From a virus (Duplodnaviria > Heunggongvirae > Uroviricota > Caudoviricetes), in IMG/VR virus record IMGVR_UViG_2529293063_000017: a DNA stretch of 39,037 bases; one strand, written 5' to 3'. The notes under the pieces are model-generated. The model saw only the letters and a list, made by a program, of their open reading frames with translations. It was not told the origin of the DNA and did no database searches. This document shows, one piece after another, positions 4,142 to 39,037 of this stretch. The stretch's first letter is position 1. Each line of letters begins with the position of its first letter. The translations under genes and the position numbers were made by a program.

Positions 4142-4766
4142 GAAACCAGAACATGCACACACAAAAAAACCGCTTGCCATGCCGCAATCAGTCAGGTTAC
4201 ATTTCCGCTGCACCTCACAAAACGGGTGTCGGGTTTCGCAGCCTGCTGACTACACAAGCGCACAACCGCGCCAGCGGTTTTTTTGTGCGTACTGTATTGC
4301 CACGTTTTTTTCGCGTCAGAATTATGGCGGGGCGTACGGGGCCGACTTCGGTCGGGCCGGGTTCTTGTGTAGCCGGTACTGCGAACCTCGTACGTCTCGC
4401 CACCCACAGTTTCGCAGCTCTGGATGGTGAGTTTTCACAACTTACTACACAAGGGGCCACACCATGGCAAACCGCAAACCACACCGCGCTATCGCGGAGC
4501 GTCGTCACATCCAGACTGAAATCAACCGCAGACTTTCCCGCGCATCACGCGTCGCGCAAATCATGCACATCAATATGCTGCATGAGCGCAGCCACGCACT
4601 ATCAAACATTTATTCCGCCTCTGTTTTCAGCTATCTGGCGGATGATCTGCACTAGCTTCAACAGCTCATCCAGCAGCAAAACAAACTCCATTAATTCCTG
4701 TTCCGGGCCTTTCCTGCACCTTGCGGCGGGAGGCCTTCGCACATCTGTAACAAGAGGATTGCCGCA

Positions 4767-8022: not shown

Positions 8023-8982
8023 ATGAAAATTTGTATCGACGACGGCTCCACCAACATCAAGCTGGCATGGACTGAGAACGGCGAATGCCGCAACGCCATC
8101 AGCCCGAACAGCTTCAAGTCGGAATGGTCTGCGCCGTTCGGTGTCACGCAGCCCGCGAACTACATGCTTGATGGCGTGCGCTATGGTTTTGATCCGGTCA
8201 GCGATCGCTTTGTCCAGACGACCGACACGCAATACCAGTACAGCGATGTGAATGTCATTGCCATTCATCACGCGCTGGTCAAATCAGGCATCACGCCACA
8301 GGAAGTGGATGTGGTTGTCACCCTGCCACTGAGCGAGTATTTCGACACAAACGCACAGCCGGATATGACCAACATCAACCGCAAAAAAGCGAACGTCATG
8401 CGCCCGGTGGAGTACCAGAACGGTGAGGCATTCACTATCCGTAACGTGCGGGTTATGCCTGAATCCATTCCGGCTGGCTTTAAGGCACTGGCTAACATGA
8501 GTCCGTTTGAATCCCTGCTGATTGTGGATTTAGGCGGAACCACGCTGGATGTGGCAAAGGTTCAGGGGCAACTGGCAGGTATCAGCCAGGTGTTTTGCGA
8601 TCCACACGTAGGCGTTTCTCTGATGGCCGATGCCGTACTGTCGGTGATGGCCACTAACGGTATGCGCACCAGTCACCACATCGCCAATACCATTATCGAA
8701 CATCGCCATGATGAAGCCTGGCTGCGCCAGCACATCCACAATGACGCGCATTACGCCAGCCTGATGGCGGTTATTCGTGAAAAGGAAGAAACACTGAAAC
8801 AACGCGTGATCCGCGCGCTGGCGGTTTTTTCGGGTTACGGGCGGGTGATGGTTGTCGGTGGCGGGGCGGAGATTGTGGCACCCGCTATCCGCGAAGCCTG
8901 CGGAGTTAATGCGACTTTCATCGCGGACGGGGTGCCACAGTTTGCTCTGGTTAATGGGCTGTACGCAATGGACAAGGAGTAA
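8023..8982 (+). CDS. parM: ParM/StbA-like actin-type segregation ATPase
   Basis: 319 aa; N-terminus MKICIDDGSTNIKLAW...ISPNSFKSEW...QYSDVNVIAIHHAL closely matches the plasmid R1 ParM N-terminal region as I recall it. Confidence 0.8.
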   Translation: MKICIDDGSTNIKLAWTENGECRNAISPNSFKSEWSAPFGVTQPANYMLDGVRYGFDPVSDRFVQTTDTQYQYSDVNVIAIHHALVKSGITPQEVDVVVTLPLSEYFDTNAQPDMTNINRKKANVMRPVEYQNGEAFTIRNVRVMPESIPAGFKALANMSPFESLLIVDLGGTTLDVAKVQGQLAGISQVFCDPHVGVSLMADAVLSVMATNGMRTSHHIANTIIEHRHDEAWLRQHIHNDAHYASLMAVIREKEETLKQRVIRALAVFSGYGRVMVVGGGAEIVAPAIREACGVNATFIADGVPQFALVNGLYAMDKE

Positions 8983-10267: not shown

Positions 10268-10765
10268 TTATTTGTTTTTCCGTAAAGGATTAGCTTTCCA
10301 TCTTCTTACTAACCATTCGAATTCTTGATATGTAGTATCCGAATTAATGCTTTCTCTGATTGCTTTAATTAATGGCTCGGCAATATCATATGTCTCTACA
10401 ACTGTTGTGTAAGATGTTCTTTTTATCATTTTTTCATCATAAATACCTTCACGAATACTTACAGCAACTCGCTCGTAAAAATTTAAAATATATTGAAATT
10501 TTCGACGCTCGGCCATTTCCTCATCTGTTATTGTACAACCATCACAAGGAAAAACATAAGAACGAAATGATTTGCCTGAACGATGCACTTGTTTCAGGGT
10601 ATGCAATGACTCTATATATTGCATATCTTGCCGACTCTCAAAAAGAAAGTTAGCCGTTTGAGTTTTCTTTGCGGTACGCACATTGTAGATAATGGTTCCA
10701 ATGGCAACCAAAACGCCAAGCAGAACAATAGCATTGCTGATGATTTGTAGTGTTATTGGGTTCAT
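10268..10765 (-). CDS. Single-pass membrane-anchored protein (N-terminal TM plus about 130-aa cytoplasmic domain), unknown family; accessory cargo
   Basis: 165 aa; N-terminal ITLQIISNAIVLLGVLVAIGTIIY helix; AT-rich; co-oriented immediately upstream of 9386-10228, so a likely two-gene operon. Confidence 0.7.
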   Translation of the reverse strand: MNPITLQIISNAIVLLGVLVAIGTIIYNVRTAKKTQTANFLFESRQDMQYIESLHTLKQVHRSGKSFRSYVFPCDGCTITDEEMAERRKFQYILNFYERVAVSIREGIYDEKMIKRTSYTTVVETYDIAEPLIKAIRESINSDTTYQEFEWLVRRWKANPLRKNK

Positions 10766-25556: not shown

Positions 25557-26090
25557 TCATTCAGGTTGTTCGGGAAACGTTACTGGCAGGCTGGAAGTGT
25601 CTGTAGATTCGACTTTCTGCGCAAAGAGCATCCACTCTGTTAATTTTTGTTTATTCTCGTCGGAAATGATGCCCAGCCGTAGCTGTGAGTCCCATAGCTG
25701 GGTTTTATCCCTGACGAGCTGTAGCAGGCTTTGCTTTTCATTTTCCGCCTGCTGCCTCTGCTCTTCCTCGGTATAAGTTCGCTTTACCACTACGCCATCT
25801 TTGAACATCCATTTACCCGAAATGTCAGCACGGCGATTTGCTGTAATATCAGGTAATTCAACGACGCTTGCGCCTTCCGGATTAATTGCTGAAACATCCT
25901 TTTCAATACAAATAATAACGCCGTTATGGCCATAGACCATTTTCAAAGTGTCTGGCTGGAAATTCTTTTGTTCCTCATACCAGTTTTTTCCATCATCTGA
26001 ATAAAGCCATTTGATGTTAAATTGCTTTGTTAGCTGGTATTGCTCTTTTGTTTTAGGGTTGCCAGCAGTAATGTTTTTTAAGTGCATCAT
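25557..26090 (-). CDS. Alternative tail fibre assembly protein (G'/U'-like)
   Basis: 177 aa; MMHLKNITAGNPKT... paralogous to G ([14 protein letters not shown]...). Confidence 0.85.
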   Translation of the reverse strand: MMHLKNITAGNPKTKEQYQLTKQFNIKWLYSDDGKNWYEEQKNFQPDTLKMVYGHNGVIICIEKDVSAINPEGASVVELPDITANRRADISGKWMFKDGVVVKRTYTEEEQRQQAENEKQSLLQLVRDKTQLWDSQLRLGIISDENKQKLTEWMLFAQKVESTDTSSLPVTFPEQPE

Positions 26091-26092
26091 CG

Positions 26093-27037
26093 TTAAATAC
26101 TCCCCGCGTTATACCACGTCCCATTAATGCAATACTGAATTGGCCTTGCCTGAGTTGTATCAATTAATGCATCACGGTTTCCGTTGACTGAACCCGTAAC
26201 GACATAACCTGACCTGTCAGACCAGCCGGGGCCATTCCATGTCTGAACAGATGACAGACCGCCAAGGCGAATACCTGTAATAAACCTTGAGTTACATTCT
26301 GCCTGCGTGTATGCACCAACATCTCCCGCAGAGGGTTTGCGGGTCGTGGTGTAAAACTCTGACCAGTCAACCTCAAATCCATAACCATCACGCGCTGAAC
26401 GATAAAAAATACCGCCGTTCCTGTAATTCACGCGGAACTGTACAGCAGGGCAGCTCCCCGTATTCATATTGAAGTGGAGGATTAATGTCGATGCGCCACC
26501 AATGTTTGCGTTATAGACCCCGCTATTCCAGTTCCAGCCAACAGCTTTATCATTTCCGACAGTGCTTCCTGTTTGCCCTAAAGCAAATGCAGGTTGTTGA
26601 TTTTTCGTGTTGTAGTCTCGTCGCCAGCCAGGAGCATAAGCATCACCATGATTAATATAAGTGAATTGAGCGTTAGTAATTCCGCCACCGCTGGACGTGC
26701 TCGGCGTGGTAACGCGTATGGTCATTGCGCCGCGAGTGCCAATAACTTCCACCACAGCACCTGCAAGACAAATATTTCCGCAACCTGTATCTGTAATGAC
26801 CTTATTATTTGCATAAGCCCATGAGCCTTTGCACATCCAGTAAGGATGGTTAAATGCTCCCTGACTCTCCAGCCACGAAATAAATTGCGCGGTTGTCCAG
26901 ACCTGACTATCGCCACCAATATCCAGCCATGCGCTATATGCGCGGCAGGCCCCAATATTTTTGGTGAAGGTATCTTTTCCCGGAATATCTGCGCCGTTCT
27001 GGTTTTTCTGTAATGCGCCAGAAGCCTGATTTACCGT
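26093..27037 (-). CDS. Alternative tail-fibre C-terminal variable segment (H'-variable), start-less; fuses to H constant part after inversion
   Basis: Reading frame is open on the minus strand from the gix-like site down to the stop at 26093 and in phase with H across the shared crossover sequence; ends ...INGTWYNAGSI, parallel to the H C-terminus. Confidence 0.75.
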   Translation of the reverse strand, partial: TVNQASGALQKNQNGADIPGKDTFTKNIGACRAYSAWLDIGGDSQVWTTAQFISWLESQGAFNHPYWMCKGSWAYANNKVITDTGCGNICLAGAVVEVIGTRGAMTIRVTTPSTSSGGGITNAQFTYINHGDAYAPGWRRDYNTKNQQPAFALGQTGSTVGNDKAVGWNWNSGVYNANIGGASTLILHFNMNTGSCPAVQFRVNYRNGGIFYRSARDGYGFEVDWSEFYTTTRKPSAGDVGAYTQAECNSRFITGIRLGGLSSVQTWNGPGWSDRSGYVVTGSVNGNRDALIDTTQARPIQYCINGTWYNAGSI

Positions 27038-27063
27038 TTCCTGTAAACCGAGGTTTTAGATAA
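27030..27063. other. gix/hix-like inversion crossover site (right inverted repeat)
   Basis: ttcctgtaaaccgaggttttagataa at 27038-27063, 25/26 to the Mu gix sequence as I recall it; inverted copy of 23966-23999. Confidence 0.8.
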
Positions 27064-27117
27064 TGGCCGTTTCCGGCCTGCATGGCATGATTTGCGCTTT
27101 TGGACGGGAGATTCAGC

Positions 27118-27705
27118 GTGCTGATTGGCTATGTAAGGGTATCAACAAATGACCAGAATACAGACCTGCAACGAAACGCTCTTGTTTGTGCAGGATGTGA
27201 ACAAATATTTGAAGATAAATTAAGCGGGACAAAGACAGACCGACCGGGATTAAAACGCGCTTTAAAGCGCCTTCAAAAAGGTGACACGCTGGTTGTCTGG
27301 AAACTGGATCGCCTCGGGCGAAGCATGAAACATCTGATTTCTCTCGTCGGGGAACTACGGGAGCGAGGAATTAATTTTCGCAGTCTGACCGACAGCATAG
27401 ATACATCTTCTCCAATGGGGCGTTTTTTCTTCCACGTGATGGGTGCCCTGGCTGAAATGGAACGTGAATTAATTGTTGAACGTACACTGGCCGGACTGGC
27501 GGCAGCACGCGCACGGGGGCGCACAGGCGGACGTCGACCGAAGCTGACAAAAGAACAGCATGAGCAAATAGCAAGGCTGATCAAAAACGGGCACGACAGA
27601 AAACAACTGGCAATAATTTACGGCATTGGTATATCGACGATTTATCGTTACCACCCCGCAGGAGAATCAATCGGAACAATAGAGAAGAGTCAGGAAACAA
27701 AATAA
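27118..27705 (+). CDS. Serine DNA invertase, Gin/Pin/Cin/Hin family
   Basis: MLIGYVRVSTNDQNTDLQRNALVCAGCEQIFEDKLSG...LVVWKLDRLGRSMKHLISLVGELRERGINFRSLTDSIDTSSPMGRFFFHVMGALAEMERELI... is close to Gin-family invertases; GTG start at 27118 (the ORF track extends to a TTG at 27100). Confidence 0.9.
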   Translation: MLIGYVRVSTNDQNTDLQRNALVCAGCEQIFEDKLSGTKTDRPGLKRALKRLQKGDTLVVWKLDRLGRSMKHLISLVGELRERGINFRSLTDSIDTSSPMGRFFFHVMGALAEMERELIVERTLAGLAAARARGRTGGRRPKLTKEQHEQIARLIKNGHDRKQLAIIYGIGISTIYRYHPAGESIGTIEKSQETK

Positions 27706-34731: not shown

Positions 34732-35790
34732 TTAAAAATTATTTATTATGTGTTCAGCTAAATGATCATACTCACCAGCCATCTCATTCATTAGTTCTAC
34801 CTGATTAACTGCCCATTGCCCCCGCCCACGAAGAGCATTCGTTGGCCTAACTCGAGACAAATAGCGAATAGGTATATTTTGAATAATACTATCAGGAGCC
34901 ATAACGTTGAGGTCCTCAATCTTTCCAACTGGTTCATAATCAGTAAAATCAGGAACCGCGTTGTAAGATGAAATCTGTGAAAGCTGAGGAAGCATTTTTT
35001 CCTCTATCGCTTTTCTTATTGAACGGTGATGAACTGCATCTGCACCAACCTCTTGTTTAACATCATTTTGCTTTCTCGTATCAAAACCATTGAATATCCA
35101 ACCGCCAAATTTAGGCATCCCTTTCTGAGATATAATATTATCTCGTGGGTTACCTGATAGATATCTTTCCTTGCCCTGCTCCCAATCACGTATAAATGAT
35201 GGCAACATCTCACCAATCAGCCCTACACAATATGAAGAGAATAAATCAGGTGTGCATGGAACTAAAAAATAGTCCGAGCAGTACAATGACGATCTAACAA
35301 GCGTATTGAATGAGGGAGGTAAATCTATTAGGACATAATCATAAATAACATCATTTTTCTCTGATGCTTTTTTTGTTATCAAATCTGGCAAAATAAAACG
35401 ATATAACCCTGCGCCACTTATAACATCAGTGCCGACATTTAAAATATCTGAAAATGTATTAAGCCAAAAGTCTCCAGGAACAATATGCAAAACGCCTGCA
35501 TCTGTCTTAGTCTTAGGTTCTGTTGTATAAACTTCACCTATAGTATTTTGTTGTATGTAAGGCAATGCAAATGCTTTAACCGTTTTTCCAAAAGGGAAAT
35601 CATCTGAAGGTTCCAATAACTCTGAAAATTCCTCATCACCAATACATGCAATTGAGAGATTACACTGGGGATCAAAGTCTATTAATAAAACACTTTTTCC
35701 TTTATCTGCTAGCGATACTGCAAGATTCCAAATTATAGTTGTTTTACCAACACCACCTTTGTTATTAAAAATCGATATAGTTTTTGTCAT
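34732..35790 (-). CDS. ParA/MinD-family Walker-type ATPase with about 100-aa C-terminal extension; solo accessory gene
   Basis: 352 aa; N-terminal deviant Walker A (MTKTISIFNNKGGVGKTT); AT-rich; no ParB-like partner gene nearby. Confidence 0.8.
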   Translation of the reverse strand: MTKTISIFNNKGGVGKTTIIWNLAVSLADKGKSVLLIDFDPQCNLSIACIGDEEFSELLEPSDDFPFGKTVKAFALPYIQQNTIGEVYTTEPKTKTDAGVLHIVPGDFWLNTFSDILNVGTDVISGAGLYRFILPDLITKKASEKNDVIYDYVLIDLPPSFNTLVRSSLYCSDYFLVPCTPDLFSSYCVGLIGEMLPSFIRDWEQGKERYLSGNPRDNIISQKGMPKFGGWIFNGFDTRKQNDVKQEVGADAVHHRSIRKAIEEKMLPQLSQISSYNAVPDFTDYEPVGKIEDLNVMAPDSIIQNIPIRYLSRVRPTNALRGRGQWAVNQVELMNEMAGEYDHLAEHIINNF

Positions 35791-36050: not shown

Positions 36051-36311
36051 ATGTTTCGTTGTCCGCTTTGTGGCGCATCTGCCCGTATCCGCACCAGTCG
36101 TCCTGAAAATGATTCAAACACCGTGCGGCAAAAGTATTACCAGTGTAACAATCTGGAATGCGGCGTATGCTTCTCAACACTGGAAGCTTTCCATAAATTC
36201 ACATCAAAACACGCCTCCGGCGCTCTCTCTTCAGAAGGTATCCCGTGGCATAAGCTGCCAGCTTCACACAGGGGAAACAATCAGATGAGTTTGCCTTTAC
36301 CTCAGAATTAA
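36051..36311 (+). CDS. ogr: Ogr/Delta-family zinc-finger late-gene transcription activator
   Basis: MFRCPLCGASARIRTSR...YYQCNNLECGVCFSTLEAF... resembles P2 Ogr (MFHCPLCQHAAHARTSR...YHQCQNVNCSATF...). Confidence 0.85.
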   Translation: MFRCPLCGASARIRTSRPENDSNTVRQKYYQCNNLECGVCFSTLEAFHKFTSKHASGALSSEGIPWHKLPASHRGNNQMSLPLPQN

Positions 36312-36502
36312 TGGGCAGAATTGCCGGAGCAACAAAAAAGCGATAGATTACGCGCGGGTGCCTTTCGGCTGATGGTCGGAGGGAATACCCGAAGGCCAGA
36401 TGTGGAAAGACCCCGGAAAACATTTCTGTTTAACCGAGGCCCTAACATATCTACCTTAAGCAAGTGATAGGTTAGCGCCTCTCCAACAAAGGAGCAAGCG
36501 CT

Positions 36503-36643
36503 ATGTCGCAAAAATCGCTTACGGCCATCACGTTCTGCGTGACGGTAATCCTCATCATCTGGATGCTGCACGGTTCGCTGTGTGAAATACGGATGAGCTT
36601 CTGGGGAGCGGAGTTTGCGGCGTTCTTACAGTGTAAGCAGTAA
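36503..36643 (+). CDS. hok: Hok/Gef-family type I toxin (small membrane peptide)
   Basis: 46 aa, below the ORF-track length cut-off; MSQKSLTAITFCVTVILIIWMLHGSLCEIRMSFWGAEFAAFLQCKQ has the N-terminal TM helix and the SLCEIR...E.AAF... signature of Hok/Gef peptides; RBS ggagcaagcgctATG. Confidence 0.7.
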   Translation: MSQKSLTAITFCVTVILIIWMLHGSLCEIRMSFWGAEFAAFLQCKQ

Positions 36644-36878
36644 GGAAACCGCGACGGGGGAGTAATCCCCCGTCAATCGGTTGCCAGGGTAAGGTCGATA
36701 AGGCACCCTATATCACAGACATGAACAACAAGCCCGCAGCGTAAAAACTGCGGGTTTTCTTTTTGGTATCCCCATCCATAAGCAATAGGCATAACAGATC
36801 GATGCAATAAATCCGATCGATAAAAACGATCGATTTGTTATCATATCGGCAGCAGTAACCACACAAGAGGTGCCGCAA

Positions 36879-37076
36879 ATGACGCAAAATGTACGATGCA
36901 AAAATTGCAACAAACTACTTGCCCGCGCCTCATTTCACTACATTGAAATAAAATGTCCGCGCTGCAAAACACTTAACCAGATAACGAGAGCCATTGAGCA
37001 CCCCACACACATGAGGAGTTATGACCGTGGGGATCGCAATCCAGCACCAACCAGCACATACACCGGAACACACTAA
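36879..37076 (+). CDS. com: Com-like zinc-finger protein (Mu Com family translational activator)
   Basis: MTQNVRCKNCNKLLARASFHYIEIKCPRCKTLNQITRAIEHPT... resembles Mu Com (MKSIRCKNCNKLLFKADSFDHIEIRCPRCKRHIIMLNACEHPT...); its 3' end overlaps the start of the methyltransferase gene. Confidence 0.8.
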   Translation: MTQNVRCKNCNKLLARASFHYIEIKCPRCKTLNQITRAIEHPTHMRSYDRGDRNPAPTSTYTGTH

Positions 37077-37812
37077 GGTTTATCAGACTGACAATGCCAC
37101 GCTCTGTCGTGGGAATGCGCTGGAAATATTGCCGCTGATTGAGCCAGAAAGTATTGATGCCTTAATCACTGACCCGCCTTACAGTTCGGGCGCGACACAC
37201 AAGGCCGGACGCACCAACCAGGGCAGCCACGCAAAATATCTGAACGGCGAGAACCTTCATCGCTTTGATGGGTTTGCGGGTGAAAACATGGATGCCCGTT
37301 CGTGGGCTTACTGGACACAATTATGGATGGCACAGGCACACCGCGCAGTCAGGCCGGGCGGTTATGCCCTGGTATTTACTGACTGGCGACAACTGCCAGC
37401 TTTAACCGATGCGTTTCAGGCCAGCGGTTTTACATGGCGTGGAATCATTGCGTGGAACAAAGGAAGGGGGTCACGAACACCCCATACGGGGTATTTCCGG
37501 CATCAGTGCGAATACATCGTCTGGGGCAGTAAAGGCCATTTAGGTAAATCGCCTTCGGGACCGTTCGACGGCTGCATGACGTTCCCGGTTATCCCATCAA
37601 AGAAAATGCACCCGACCGGAAAACCAGAAGAACTTATGGCAGAACTGGTCAGGACTGCGAATAGTGGTGGAACAGTCCTTGATCCTTTTATGGGATCGGG
37701 AACAACGGGTGTTGCAGCACTGAAAGCAGGACGCAAATTTATTGGTATAGAAACCAGTGATCATTATTTTGATGTAGCAACACAACGGCTCAAAACGGCG
37801 ATCGAACCATAA
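37021..37812 (+). CDS. DNA methyltransferase (N6-adenine or N4-cytosine class, DPPY motif), orphan
   Basis: 263 aa; motif IV ...LITDPPYSSG... precedes motif I ...LDPFMGSGTTGVAA... (beta-class order); RBS gaggag before the ATG; no adjacent restriction endonuclease gene. Confidence 0.85.
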   Translation: MTVGIAIQHQPAHTPEHTKVYQTDNATLCRGNALEILPLIEPESIDALITDPPYSSGATHKAGRTNQGSHAKYLNGENLHRFDGFAGENMDARSWAYWTQLWMAQAHRAVRPGGYALVFTDWRQLPALTDAFQASGFTWRGIIAWNKGRGSRTPHTGYFRHQCEYIVWGSKGHLGKSPSGPFDGCMTFPVIPSKKMHPTGKPEELMAELVRTANSGGTVLDPFMGSGTTGVAALKAGRKFIGIETSDHYFDVATQRLKTAIEP

Positions 37813-37856
37813 GACAAAGCCCGCAATGTTGCGGGCTTACTCTACCTCTCGAAAAT

Positions 37857-37880
37857 GTGGTCACTGCGTGGACATACGCT
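37857..37880. repeat. Candidate attR core (direct repeat of 11-35)
   Basis: gtggtcactgcgtggacatacgct; shares cactgcgtggaca with the left end; lies about 45 bp after the last phage gene. Confidence 0.4.
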
Positions 37881-38041
37881 GATACAAATCCTTTTATATC
37901 AAGAAATTAAATCTTTGTTTTTTTCATCAACAAGGATTTTCACGTTTGTGTTACCTGTATGAGACGAGAGTTAACCGGACAAGTGTGCCATAATCTCGCG
38001 GCCAGGCATACTTGCGAAGATTTCAGGTATAAGGATACGTA

Positions 38042-39037
38042 ATGATACAACCTATTTCCGGCCCTCCTCCTGGGCAACCACCAGGTCAGGGAGATAACCT
38101 GCCGTCTGGCGCGGGCAATCAGCCTTTATCCAGTCAGCAACGTACTTCGCTGGAAAGCTTAATGACGAAAGTGACCTCACTGACGCAACAGCAAAGAGCA
38201 GAACTGTGGGCGGGTATCAGGCACGATATTGGTCTGTCGGGAGATTCCCCGCTGCTTTCGCGTCACTTCCCTGCCGCTGAGCATAATCTGGCGCAACGTC
38301 TGCTGGCCGCGCAAAAAAGCCATTCTGCCCGCCAGCTTTTAGCGCAATTAGGGGAGTATTTACGTCTGGGGAATAATCGTCAGGCGGTCACGGATTATAT
38401 CCGTCATAACTTTGGTCAGACGCCGCTGAATCAGCTCTCACCGGAGCAATTAAAAACCATTCTCACCCTGTTGCAGGAAGGGAAGATGGTTATTCCGCAA
38501 CCACAGCAGCGCGAGGCGACCGACCGTCCTTTATTACCGGCGGAGCACAATGCGCTAAAACAGCTGGTGACCAAACTTGCGGCGGCAACGGGGGAACCCA
38601 GCAAACAGATCTGGCAATCGATGCTGGAACTTTCCGGGGTGAAAGATGGCGAGTTAATTCCAGCGAAACTGTTTAACCATCTGGTGACCTGGTTGCAGGC
38701 GCGCCAGACGTTAAGCCAGCAAAATACGCCGACGCTGGAATCACTACAGATGGCGCTAAAACAACCTTTAGATGCCAGTGAACTGGCGGCGTTATCGGCA
38801 TATATCCAGCAAAAATATGGCCTTTCTGCGCAATCATCGCTTTCTTCTGCCCAGGCCGAGGATATTCTTAATCAGCTTTATCAACGGCGGGTTAAAGGGA
38901 TTGATCCGCGTGATATGCAACCGCTGCTTAATCCTTTTCCACCGATGATGGACACGTTGCAAAATATGGCAACGCGTCCCGCGCTGTGGATACTGTTAGT
39001 CGCGATTATCCTGATGCTGGTCTGGCTGGTTCGTTAG
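38042..39037 (+). CDS. Probable host-side gene: Pro/Gln-rich protein with internal repeats and a C-terminal TM anchor; function unknown
   Basis: 331-aa ORF beyond the candidate attR; N-terminal PPGQPPGQ segment; C-terminal ...ALWILLVAIILMLVWLVR hydrophobic tail. Confidence 0.5.
   Translation: MIQPISGPPPGQPPGQGDNLPSGAGNQPLSSQQRTSLESLMTKVTSLTQQQRAELWAGIRHDIGLSGDSPLLSRHFPAAEHNLAQRLLAAQKSHSARQLLAQLGEYLRLGNNRQAVTDYIRHNFGQTPLNQLSPEQLKTILTLLQEGKMVIPQPQQREATDRPLLPAEHNALKQLVTKLAAATGEPSKQIWQSMLELSGVKDGELIPAKLFNHLVTWLQARQTLSQQNTPTLESLQMALKQPLDASELAALSAYIQQKYGLSAQSSLSSAQAEDILNQLYQRRVKGIDPRDMQPLLNPFPPMMDTLQNMATRPALWILLVAIILMLVWLVR

Follow-up and report, generated by a model that had tools for sequence, protein, structure and literature searches.

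A predicted Mu mom-type control cassette in front of a beta-class DNA methyltransferase gene at the right end of a P2-like prophage

Introduction

Transcription of the DNA-modification gene mom of bacteriophage Mu is governed by Dam and OxyR and needs the activator C, and this control has been summarised together with the action of Com and the toxicity of mom expression (PMC3378877). Com activates translation as an RNA-binding protein, and the RNA motif that it recognises has been defined (PMC6483171, PMC3378877). Here we describe a locus of similar build in a stretch of 39,037 nucleotides from a virus of the Caudoviricetes (IMG/VR record IMGVR_UViG_2529293063_000017; the whole stretch is called the window below), in which a com gene overlaps the gene of a beta-class amino DNA methyltransferase at the right end of a P2-like prophage. 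We consider it probable, at roughly 0.7, that a Mu mom-type control cassette of ~250 bp (36785-37035) drives this conventional, probably N6-adenine, methyltransferase and forms a self-contained unit with it.

Mu Com binds its target RNA in vitro, and the target motif has been defined by systematic evolution of ligands by exponential enrichment (SELEX) and selective 2'-hydroxyl acylation analysed by primer extension (SHAPE). The bipartite SELEX motif is NGAGNNCC(N)2-3GAGNNCCNN, the Mu site is GAAUGCCUGCGAGCAUCCCACGGAG, and the published core is 5'-CC(N)2-3GAG-3' (PMC6483171). In Mu, the Com-target hairpin adjoins a translation-inhibition structure, which holds the GUG start codon of mom in its stem (PMC6483171).

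Com is also found next to true methyltransferases. Such pairs have been described as FluMu Hin1523, Pnm1 Nma1821, Hia5 and B3 ORF47/48, in a study that also reported Com sites for hin1523 (Drozdz et al. 2012, PMC3299994). Moreover, genes 21/20 of the Burkholderia P2-like phage KS5 encode a Com translational regulator and an N-4/N-6 DNA methylase (Lynch et al. 2010, PMC3091744). M.EcoGII, an adenine methyltransferase of the beta class found in E. coli prophages, is non-specific (PMC5778455). Among operators controlled by Dam and OxyR, those of gtr contain a 13-bp GATC pair within one OxyR half-site (PMC2909390).

Results

The com-methyltransferase unit and Mu com-mom

The com and methyltransferase open reading frames (ORFs) overlap on the plus strand at the prophage right end, beside the host gene flk. 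The elements of the unit are as follows.

36785-36834, no strand assigned: putative Dam/OxyR-type operator with three GATCGAT (36797, 36815 and 36828), spaced 18 + 13 bp
36817-36844, plus strand: predicted sigma-70 promoter, a consensus match only (TCGATA, 16-bp spacer, TATCAT), with TG upstream (extended -10)
36865-36870, plus strand: Shine-Dalgarno AAGAGG of com, predicted from sequence, 8 nt 5' of the ATG at 36879
36879-37076, plus strand: com, a 65-residue CCCC zinc-ribbon RNA-binding translational activator by family assignment
36986-37002, plus strand: Com target, bipartite GAG-NN-CC-NNN-GAG-NN-CC, matching the SELEX/SHAPE-defined motif; Com binding predicted
37001-37032, plus strand: translation-inhibition hairpin, predicted fold of -13.2 kcal/mol, CCCCAC-ACA-CAUGA-GGAG-UUAUG-ACC-GUGGGG
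37021-37812, plus strand: methyltransferase, beta-class amino DNA methyltransferase of 263 residues; the start may be GUG 37027

The unit closely resembles com-mom. Com overlaps its cargo by 56 nt (37021-37076), as the sequence-only reading had stated, against 50 nt in Mu; with translation starting at the in-frame GUG 37027 instead, the overlap would be 50 nt. As in Mu, three GATC sites 18 and 13 bp apart lie upstream, a CC-N3-GAG Com target in a small hairpin adjoins the inhibitory hairpin, and the latter combines a CCCAC/GUGGG stem with a GGAG Shine-Dalgarno in its loop. The two loci differ in their cargo, which is a Rossmann-fold beta-class methyltransferase in the window, whereas Mu Mom has the acyltransferase fold PF25680. 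In addition, the window lacks the Mu C-dependent promoter and has another predicted promoter overlapping the GATC sites, and its phage is P2-like, not transposable.

The Com protein

The Com protein (MTQNVRCKNCNKLL...CPRCK) contains a CxxC...CxxC arrangement of Cys7, Cys10, Cys26 and Cys29, all of which are invariant columns in an alignment of 20 Com sequences. It is recognised by the Pfam model Zn_ribbon_Com (PF10122; E 9.5e-12, 44.6 bits, cutoff 22.9) and by the PHROG 'gpCom control of modification' (2e-17), and shares 60% identity with Mu Com over 42 residues, across the zinc ribbon; NCBIfam holds no Com model. These matches agree with the earlier description of the small protein as Com-like. 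The tail of Com is variable except for a conserved 'EHPT'; the simplest reading is that this stretch reflects, at the protein level, the overlapping RNA element.

The predicted Com target and inhibitory hairpin

The pattern GAGNNCCNNNGAGNNCC occurs once in the window with both strands counted, at 36986-37002, where 0.09 occurrences are expected. CC(N3)GAG (36991-36998) lies within the 6-nt loop of a short hairpin (36988-37001). The Com target is located directly 5' of the inhibitory hairpin, and nucleotide 37001 is common to both. The inhibitory hairpin (z = -2.5; 3 of 200 shuffles fold equally well) is the only one among the folded stretches to stand out, and is composed of an outer stem CCCCAC/GUGGGG and an inner stem CAUGA/UUAUG. 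The Shine-Dalgarno GAGGAG (37013-37018) is positioned at the tip, with GGAG forming the tetraloop and the 5' GA closing the inner stem, while AUG 37021 is within the inner stem and GUG 37027 within the outer stem. Base for base, the hairpin aligns with the Mu translation-inhibition structure (CCCAC...GUGGG), and the Mu hairpin UCCCAC-GGAGAAACAUU-GUGGGA folds alike at -8.7 kcal/mol.

The sequence-only reading had suggested folding the mRNA around 37000-37040 for a hairpin that hides the ribosome-binding site. A hairpin is indeed present there, but the Shine-Dalgarno is in the loop and it is the start codons that are paired, as in Mu. Its broader proposal of Mu-like translational control is supported, given the published Com RNA motif and the homology of the hairpin to the Mu inhibition structure. 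Rfam contains no family for the Com-target/hairpin element.

The same element recurs in related operons. Of 160 com loci collected, enterobacterial operons with this beta-methyltransferase, Mom or C5-methyltransferase as cargo provided 27 distinct junctions, and GCC-NNN-GAGCAYCCCAC...(GGAG or AAGGA)...GUGGG is common to all of them. All six outer pairs of the inhibitory stem are formed in 27/27 junctions, with one compensated pair (CG 17, UA 9, UG 1), and the outer pair of the small Com hairpin covaries as well (GC 17, AU 8, GU 2). Particularly, nucleotide 37001 (alignment column 18) covaries with both of its alternative partners, one in the Com hairpin and one in the inhibitory stem, as a mutually exclusive switch would predict. 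When all cargo classes are considered, 44 of 47 com-cargo junctions have CC(N2-3)GAG ~30 nt before the first cargo codon, and the cargo start codon is paired in 33 of the 47 minimum-free-energy folds.

The methyltransferase

The methyltransferase matches PF01555 N6_N4_Mtase (3.5e-33, 115.9 bits against a cutoff of 26.7). DPPY (37171-37182, residues 51-54) precedes FMGSG (37687-37701, residues 223-227), which is the beta-class motif order, and the nearest solved structures are beta-class enzymes, e.g. M1.HpyAVI/DpnA and CcrM. It does not reach the cutoffs of the NCBIfam equivalog models for CcrM and YhdJ, and D12 and Mom (PF25680) are not among its Pfam matches at E <= 0.01. The DPPY motif suggests adenine N6 as the target, and on its sequence the enzyme is probably of the N6-adenine type. 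At the locus, PADLOC returns solely methyltransferase models, and no nuclease gene adjoins the methyltransferase among its immediate neighbours, although not every prophage ORF was scanned for one; the adjacent cognate endonuclease of a Type II restriction-modification system is therefore missing here. The enzyme had been called a beta-class orphan without a cognate nuclease, in line with these results.

The family is very large and phage-borne, with 7,498 matches at E <= 1e-10 among 8,000 candidates scored, and no characterised close homologue was recognised among these matches. A literature search for a methylome motif assigned to the methyltransferase gave nothing usable. An identity with the non-specific N6-adenine enzymes of the Hia5/Hin1523 type was ruled out, since those are Dam-related alpha-class enzymes and the window enzyme is a PF01555 beta-class protein with DPPY first.

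GUG 37027, codon 3 of the annotated ORF, is 8 nt from GGAG, whereas AUG 37021 is 2-4 nt from the Shine-Dalgarno. Mom and C5 operons start at the GUG of GUGGG. Because both the Mom/C5 starts and the Shine-Dalgarno spacing favour GUG, the true start may be GUG 37027; the two possible proteins differ by two residues only.

Homologues at least 67% identical to the methyltransferase retain com. In the Yersinia homologue the methyltransferase is 73% identical, and hok, operator, com and hairpin are all retained. More distant homologues in Mu-like prophages (L164-L167) lie either within the lysis cassette or immediately 5' of the terminase/portal genes. Com is missing at these loci, although Mu-like phages are the type in which it was discovered.

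Comparison with other methyltransferase loci

In FluMu, Pnm1, Hia5 and B3, a Com homologue likewise stands before an S-adenosylmethionine-dependent DNA adenine methyltransferase at the mom position, and loci of this type (L056, L078, L080) also contain CC(N2-3)GAG and a start-region hairpin. However, these enzymes are Dam-related, alpha-class, D12-type and nearly sequence-non-specific. In Hia5, Hin1523 and Nma1821 an N-terminal GQK/FxGxG comes before DPPY, and the window enzyme has the reverse motif order. Their loci also differ in arrangement: com stops 55-61 nt before the cargo start with no overlap, the motif and hairpin still being present, and there is no upstream GATC cluster.

KS5 is P2-like, as is the window prophage, and its 60-residue Com overlaps a 249-residue PF01555 methylase by 23 nt. 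Its pair is located among the tail genes, whereas that of the window is at the ogr/att end, and the KS5 host is without the enterobacterial Dam/OxyR logic; no regulatory analysis of KS5 has been published. M.EcoGII shares with the window enzyme the beta-class DPPY...FxGxG order and its state as a prophage-borne orphan, a likeness by class alone, and it is not expressed in the lysogen, where its expression does harm (PMC5778455). It is longer, at 349 residues, and its description mentions no com (PMC5778455).

The putative operator and predicted promoter

Every GATCGAT heptamer of the window (n = 3) falls within 38 bp, at a three-GATC operator that the sequence-only reading had overlooked. The best matches in the window to the OxyR consensus (ATAGnTnnnAnCTAT-N7-ATAGnTnnnAnCTAT) are the registers 36785-36821 and 36794-36830, with 15/20 each, followed by a third at 36798; a score of 15 is reached anywhere in ~10% of shuffles. 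Judged by these matches, the operator is a putative OxyR-binding site.

The 18 + 13 arrangement of Mu and the window recurs in the Mom operons L011, L146 and L148 and in the Yersinia homologue, and L008 has 19 + 13. Relatives with Mom or C5 cargo retain the 13-bp GATC pair at equal distance from com. Of the ~70 spacings between adjacent GATC sites in 116 distinct upstream regions, 58 are of 13 or 18 bp, and the GATC cluster is limited to the enterobacterial clade.

The window operator also resembles those of agn43 (flu) and gtr, which have GATC sites inside OxyR half-sites; GATC II-III of the window is the same kind of 13-bp pair. The agn43 operator of K-12 has a spacing of 19 + 13, and its CGATCGTTTATATCGATCGATAAG closely matches the com operators of close relatives, being nearly identical to them. 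Unlike the window, where the likeness comes from sequence alone, agn43 and gtr control surface proteins or O-antigen modification and show proven phase variation. A near-identical 24-nt core, CGATCGTTT(A/T)TATCGATCGATAAG, is shared by the agn43 operator (L170, 318-353) and L006 (~2410-2440), and is seen in com operators of C5-methyltransferase and Mom prophage cassettes. Because agn43 lies in the cryptic prophage CP4-44 and the cores are near-identical, the agn43 and com operators may share an origin.

The predicted promoter overlaps GATC II and III, has 9/12 consensus matches and is the sole promoter-like match in 36300-38100. In relatives with other cargos, the -10 position is kept as TATCAT or TATACT. 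The C-dependent promoter of Mu has ACCACA as its -35, a T-run and TAAGAT as its -10. When the window is aligned with Mu, the Mu -35/-10 segment is missing, and the set of C box, 19-bp spacer and T-run that marks the weak, C-dependent promoter of Mu was not found.

Some relatives have an altered operator. A 31-bp deletion between GATCGAT repeats removed GATC I/II in L005 (2400-2500), L106 and L107; the last site is also mutated to AATCAAT in L106 and L107, where the operator is absent altogether, and GATC II of L089 is mutated to GAAC. L005 (NZ_JBQPOM010000071.1, 'Vagococcus sp. WN89Y') is a contig of a Firmicute assembly with a 92%-identical E. coli-type com-methyltransferase cassette, which is likely assembly contamination.

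Cargo of com operons

Among 62 non-redundant genes immediately 3' of com, 30 encode D12/Dam-like methyltransferases, 7 Mom, 5 C5-methyltransferases and 5 N6_N4 beta-class methyltransferases, so that 47 of 62 are DNA-modification enzymes from four Pfam families. The cassette appears portable, since its cargo varies between these classes in the 160 com loci. Com and cargo overlap by 17-98 nt in most com operons. Cassettes with different cargo are homologous from the operator onward, and the homology ends after GUGGGGAAC, which reaches a few codons into the cargo gene.

Prophage setting

The window is essentially a single P2-like E. coli prophage, with the integrase at its left end followed by replication, capsid and tail genes. 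The com-methyltransferase pair is preceded by ogr and hok/gef, and followed by a hairpin, the prophage end and host flk.

36051-36311: ogr, near the right end of the P2-like prophage
36730-36757, plus strand: terminator-like hairpin and T-run (10-bp stem with 6 G-C pairs, then TCTTTTTGGT), closing the hok/gef unit
37817-37838, no strand assigned: G+C-rich hairpin with a 9-bp stem, called on the minus strand only, just past the methyltransferase stop
from 38042: host flk, adjoining the prophage right end

The terminator at 36730-36757 is predicted to insulate the com operon from hok/gef transcription. Homology to the isolated P2-like phage Chuche stops at ~37940, the approximate end of phage-homologous DNA. 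Chuche carries the region directly before its integrase, annotated as 'gpCom control of modification' and 'DNA methyltransferase', and RefSeq labels the three genes 'Hok/Gef family protein', 'Com family DNA-binding transcriptional regulator' and 'DNA-methyltransferase'. The gene pair has thus already been recognised by automatic annotation, since both sources name both genes; the RefSeq wording for Com disagrees with what experiments on Com have shown. Of 5,426 complete E. coli genomes, 171 (~3%) contain the 1.4-kb region at >=80% coverage.

Immediately 5' of the com operon, a Hok/Gef-family toxin ORF is located at 36503-36643 on the plus strand (Pfam 3.7e-7). The hok-com-methyltransferase block is also intact at a prophage end of Yersinia kristensenii (L168/L169), beside ihfA/pheT and not flk. 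Between tail gene D and ogr lies a ParA/AAA_31-like ATPase (34732-35790, minus strand), a weak match to the PADLOC candidate PDC-M28B. A near-identical O145 prophage has a PIN-domain gene in its place (L001, 2297-3367), so this position looks like a variable cargo slot.

Further inside the prophage, an early-region pair of Rfam gathering-level matches on the plus strand (4210-4284 and 4320-4407) corresponds to isrK (61.9 bits) and the C4 antisense RNA, a P1/P7-type immunity RNA (83.2 bits). A ParM/StbA actin-like segregation ATPase (8023-8982, plus strand; E 8.6e-82) and a DUF4760 protein (10268-10765, minus strand) are located between the replication and portal genes; integrated P2-like prophages do not usually carry a plasmid-type partition protein such as the former. 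A Gin/Cin-type serine invertase (27100-27705) stands beside oppositely oriented tail-fibre C-terminal and tail-fibre-assembly ORFs (25557-26836, minus strand), which suggests an invertible host-range segment (25557-27705) like the G segment of Mu.

Discussion

From the genes, motifs, predicted structures, homology to Mu and conservation across cargos we infer a circuit that extends from OxyR and Com binding to the activity, target sequence, expression timing and biological role of the enzyme. Transcription would start from the sigma-70 promoter, the -35 and spacer of which lie inside an OxyR-type site with three Dam (GATC) targets. OxyR would repress on unmethylated or hemimethylated DNA, and full methylation would lift the repression. 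On the resulting bicistronic mRNA, com would be translated freely from its own Shine-Dalgarno, while the methyltransferase start region would be locked by the hairpin 37001-37032. Com would bind the small hairpin 36988-37001 at its CC-N3-GAG loop. This hairpin has nucleotide 37001 in common with the inhibitory stem, and binding of Com would open that stem and permit initiation at AUG 37021 or GUG 37027. The methyltransferase would then modify phage DNA (and host DNA), most likely shielding progeny genomes from restriction in the next host. An anti-restriction role is plausible, and because uncontrolled modification harms the host, tightly controlled anti-restriction modification of progeny DNA is our default reading.

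Several points weigh against this circuit. Longer folds around the hairpin are unremarkable (z = -1.5 for 101 nt and -0.2 for 271 nt). The covariation reflects very few independent events, essentially two clades, and protein constraints could contribute to the conservation, because the region codes in two frames. An intact Mu C box was not found by alignment to Mu, its dyad being interrupted and leaving TTAT...TAACCACAC remnants with a longer spacer, nor does 36700-36880, read by eye, contain a P2 Ogr-type late-promoter box (TGT-N12-ACA); with neither box, timing may not be 'late'. Moreover, the relatives L005, L106 and L107 have lost GATC sites and L086 and L104 have truncated methyltransferase ORFs, which indicates that the circuit is dispensable in some lineages. 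Homologues 54-62% identical to the methyltransferase (L164-L167) occur without com in Salmonella and E. coli Mu-like prophages.

The transcriptional layer could act differently. If the Dam/OxyR switch is phase-variable and active in the lysogen, expression would be heritably ON or OFF, and part of the population would express the methyltransferase, giving epigenetic heterogeneity or pre-modification and not strictly lytic anti-restriction. In its favour, the promoter has an extended -10 and agrees with the consensus at 9/12 positions, and neither a C nor an Ogr activator box is recognisable. The number of GATC sites is the same as in agn43, the paradigm of OxyR/Dam phase variation, at a spacing of 18 + 13 versus 19 + 13, and the alternative OxyR registers at 36785, 36794 and 36798 overlap, as in gtr. 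In addition, the unit is located at the prophage end, with a terminator before it and a G+C-rich hairpin after it (no plus-strand terminator called), like a lysogenic-conversion gene, and Broadbent et al. state that the phase-variation status of mom is not known (PMC2909390). We nevertheless regard phase variation as unlikely, since Mu mom and related non-specific methyltransferases are silent in lysogens and harmful if expressed (PMC3299994, PMC5778455, PMC3378877), and the promoter prediction is a consensus match only. Somewhat more doubtful is a wider proposal, in which the ~250-bp cassette of operator, com, Com hairpin, inhibitory hairpin and GUGGGGAAC is a portable 'safety switch' precisely recombined onto at least four enzyme families. 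In P2-like prophages it would have lost activator dependence and become an agn43-style phase-variable switch, with a subpopulation of E. coli lysogens expressing the orphan methyltransferase; if true, this would amount to a prophage-borne phase-variable methylome.

At the translational level, ribosomes on com might themselves unfold 37001-37032, with methyltransferase initiation following and the Com protein dispensable. The com ORF does cross the whole hairpin and ends 56 nt within the methyltransferase gene, and overlap is the rule in com operons. Such passive coupling would, however, have no need of a conserved zinc ribbon and a specific RNA motif, and here the published Com target is present; motif and hairpin also persist in Hia5-type operons, where com ends before the cargo, and Mu Com binds its target RNA in vitro (PMC6483171). 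We therefore judge purely cis-acting coupling to be very improbable. Least credible is a role of Com as a DNA-binding transcription factor that activates the operon promoter and not translation. The RefSeq product name and one sentence in PMC3299994, which has the promoter positively regulated by Com, point that way, but the literature defines an RNA-binding translational activator with an RNA motif (PMC6483171, PMC3378877), and this motif sits on the mRNA at the right place. Control by Com acting on the mRNA remains our preferred explanation.

The sequence-only reading saw in this locus the control logic of Mu attached to a true methyltransferase. Such logic is supported here, but the combination is not new, having been described for FluMu Hin1523, Pnm1 Nma1821, Hia5 and B3 (PMC3299994) and for KS5 (PMC3091744), and being implicit in the RefSeq and Chuche labels; specialists in phages or restriction-modification would find nothing surprising in the arrangement itself. 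An enterobacterial P2-type version with a retained OxyR/Dam operator appears to have had no prior analysis in the searchable literature.

The cassette provides a ready test bed for Com-RNA switching, and could be used to address phase variation of mom-type OxyR/Dam operators, a question left open in the literature. Should the circuit operate as proposed, the layered control that Mu applies to a toxic DNA-modification gene would be modular, the cassette being used again by unrelated types of phage for their ordinary methyltransferases. A silent or conditionally expressed orphan methyltransferase would then be present in about 3% of complete E. coli genomes, and routine methylome surveys of lysogens could miss it.

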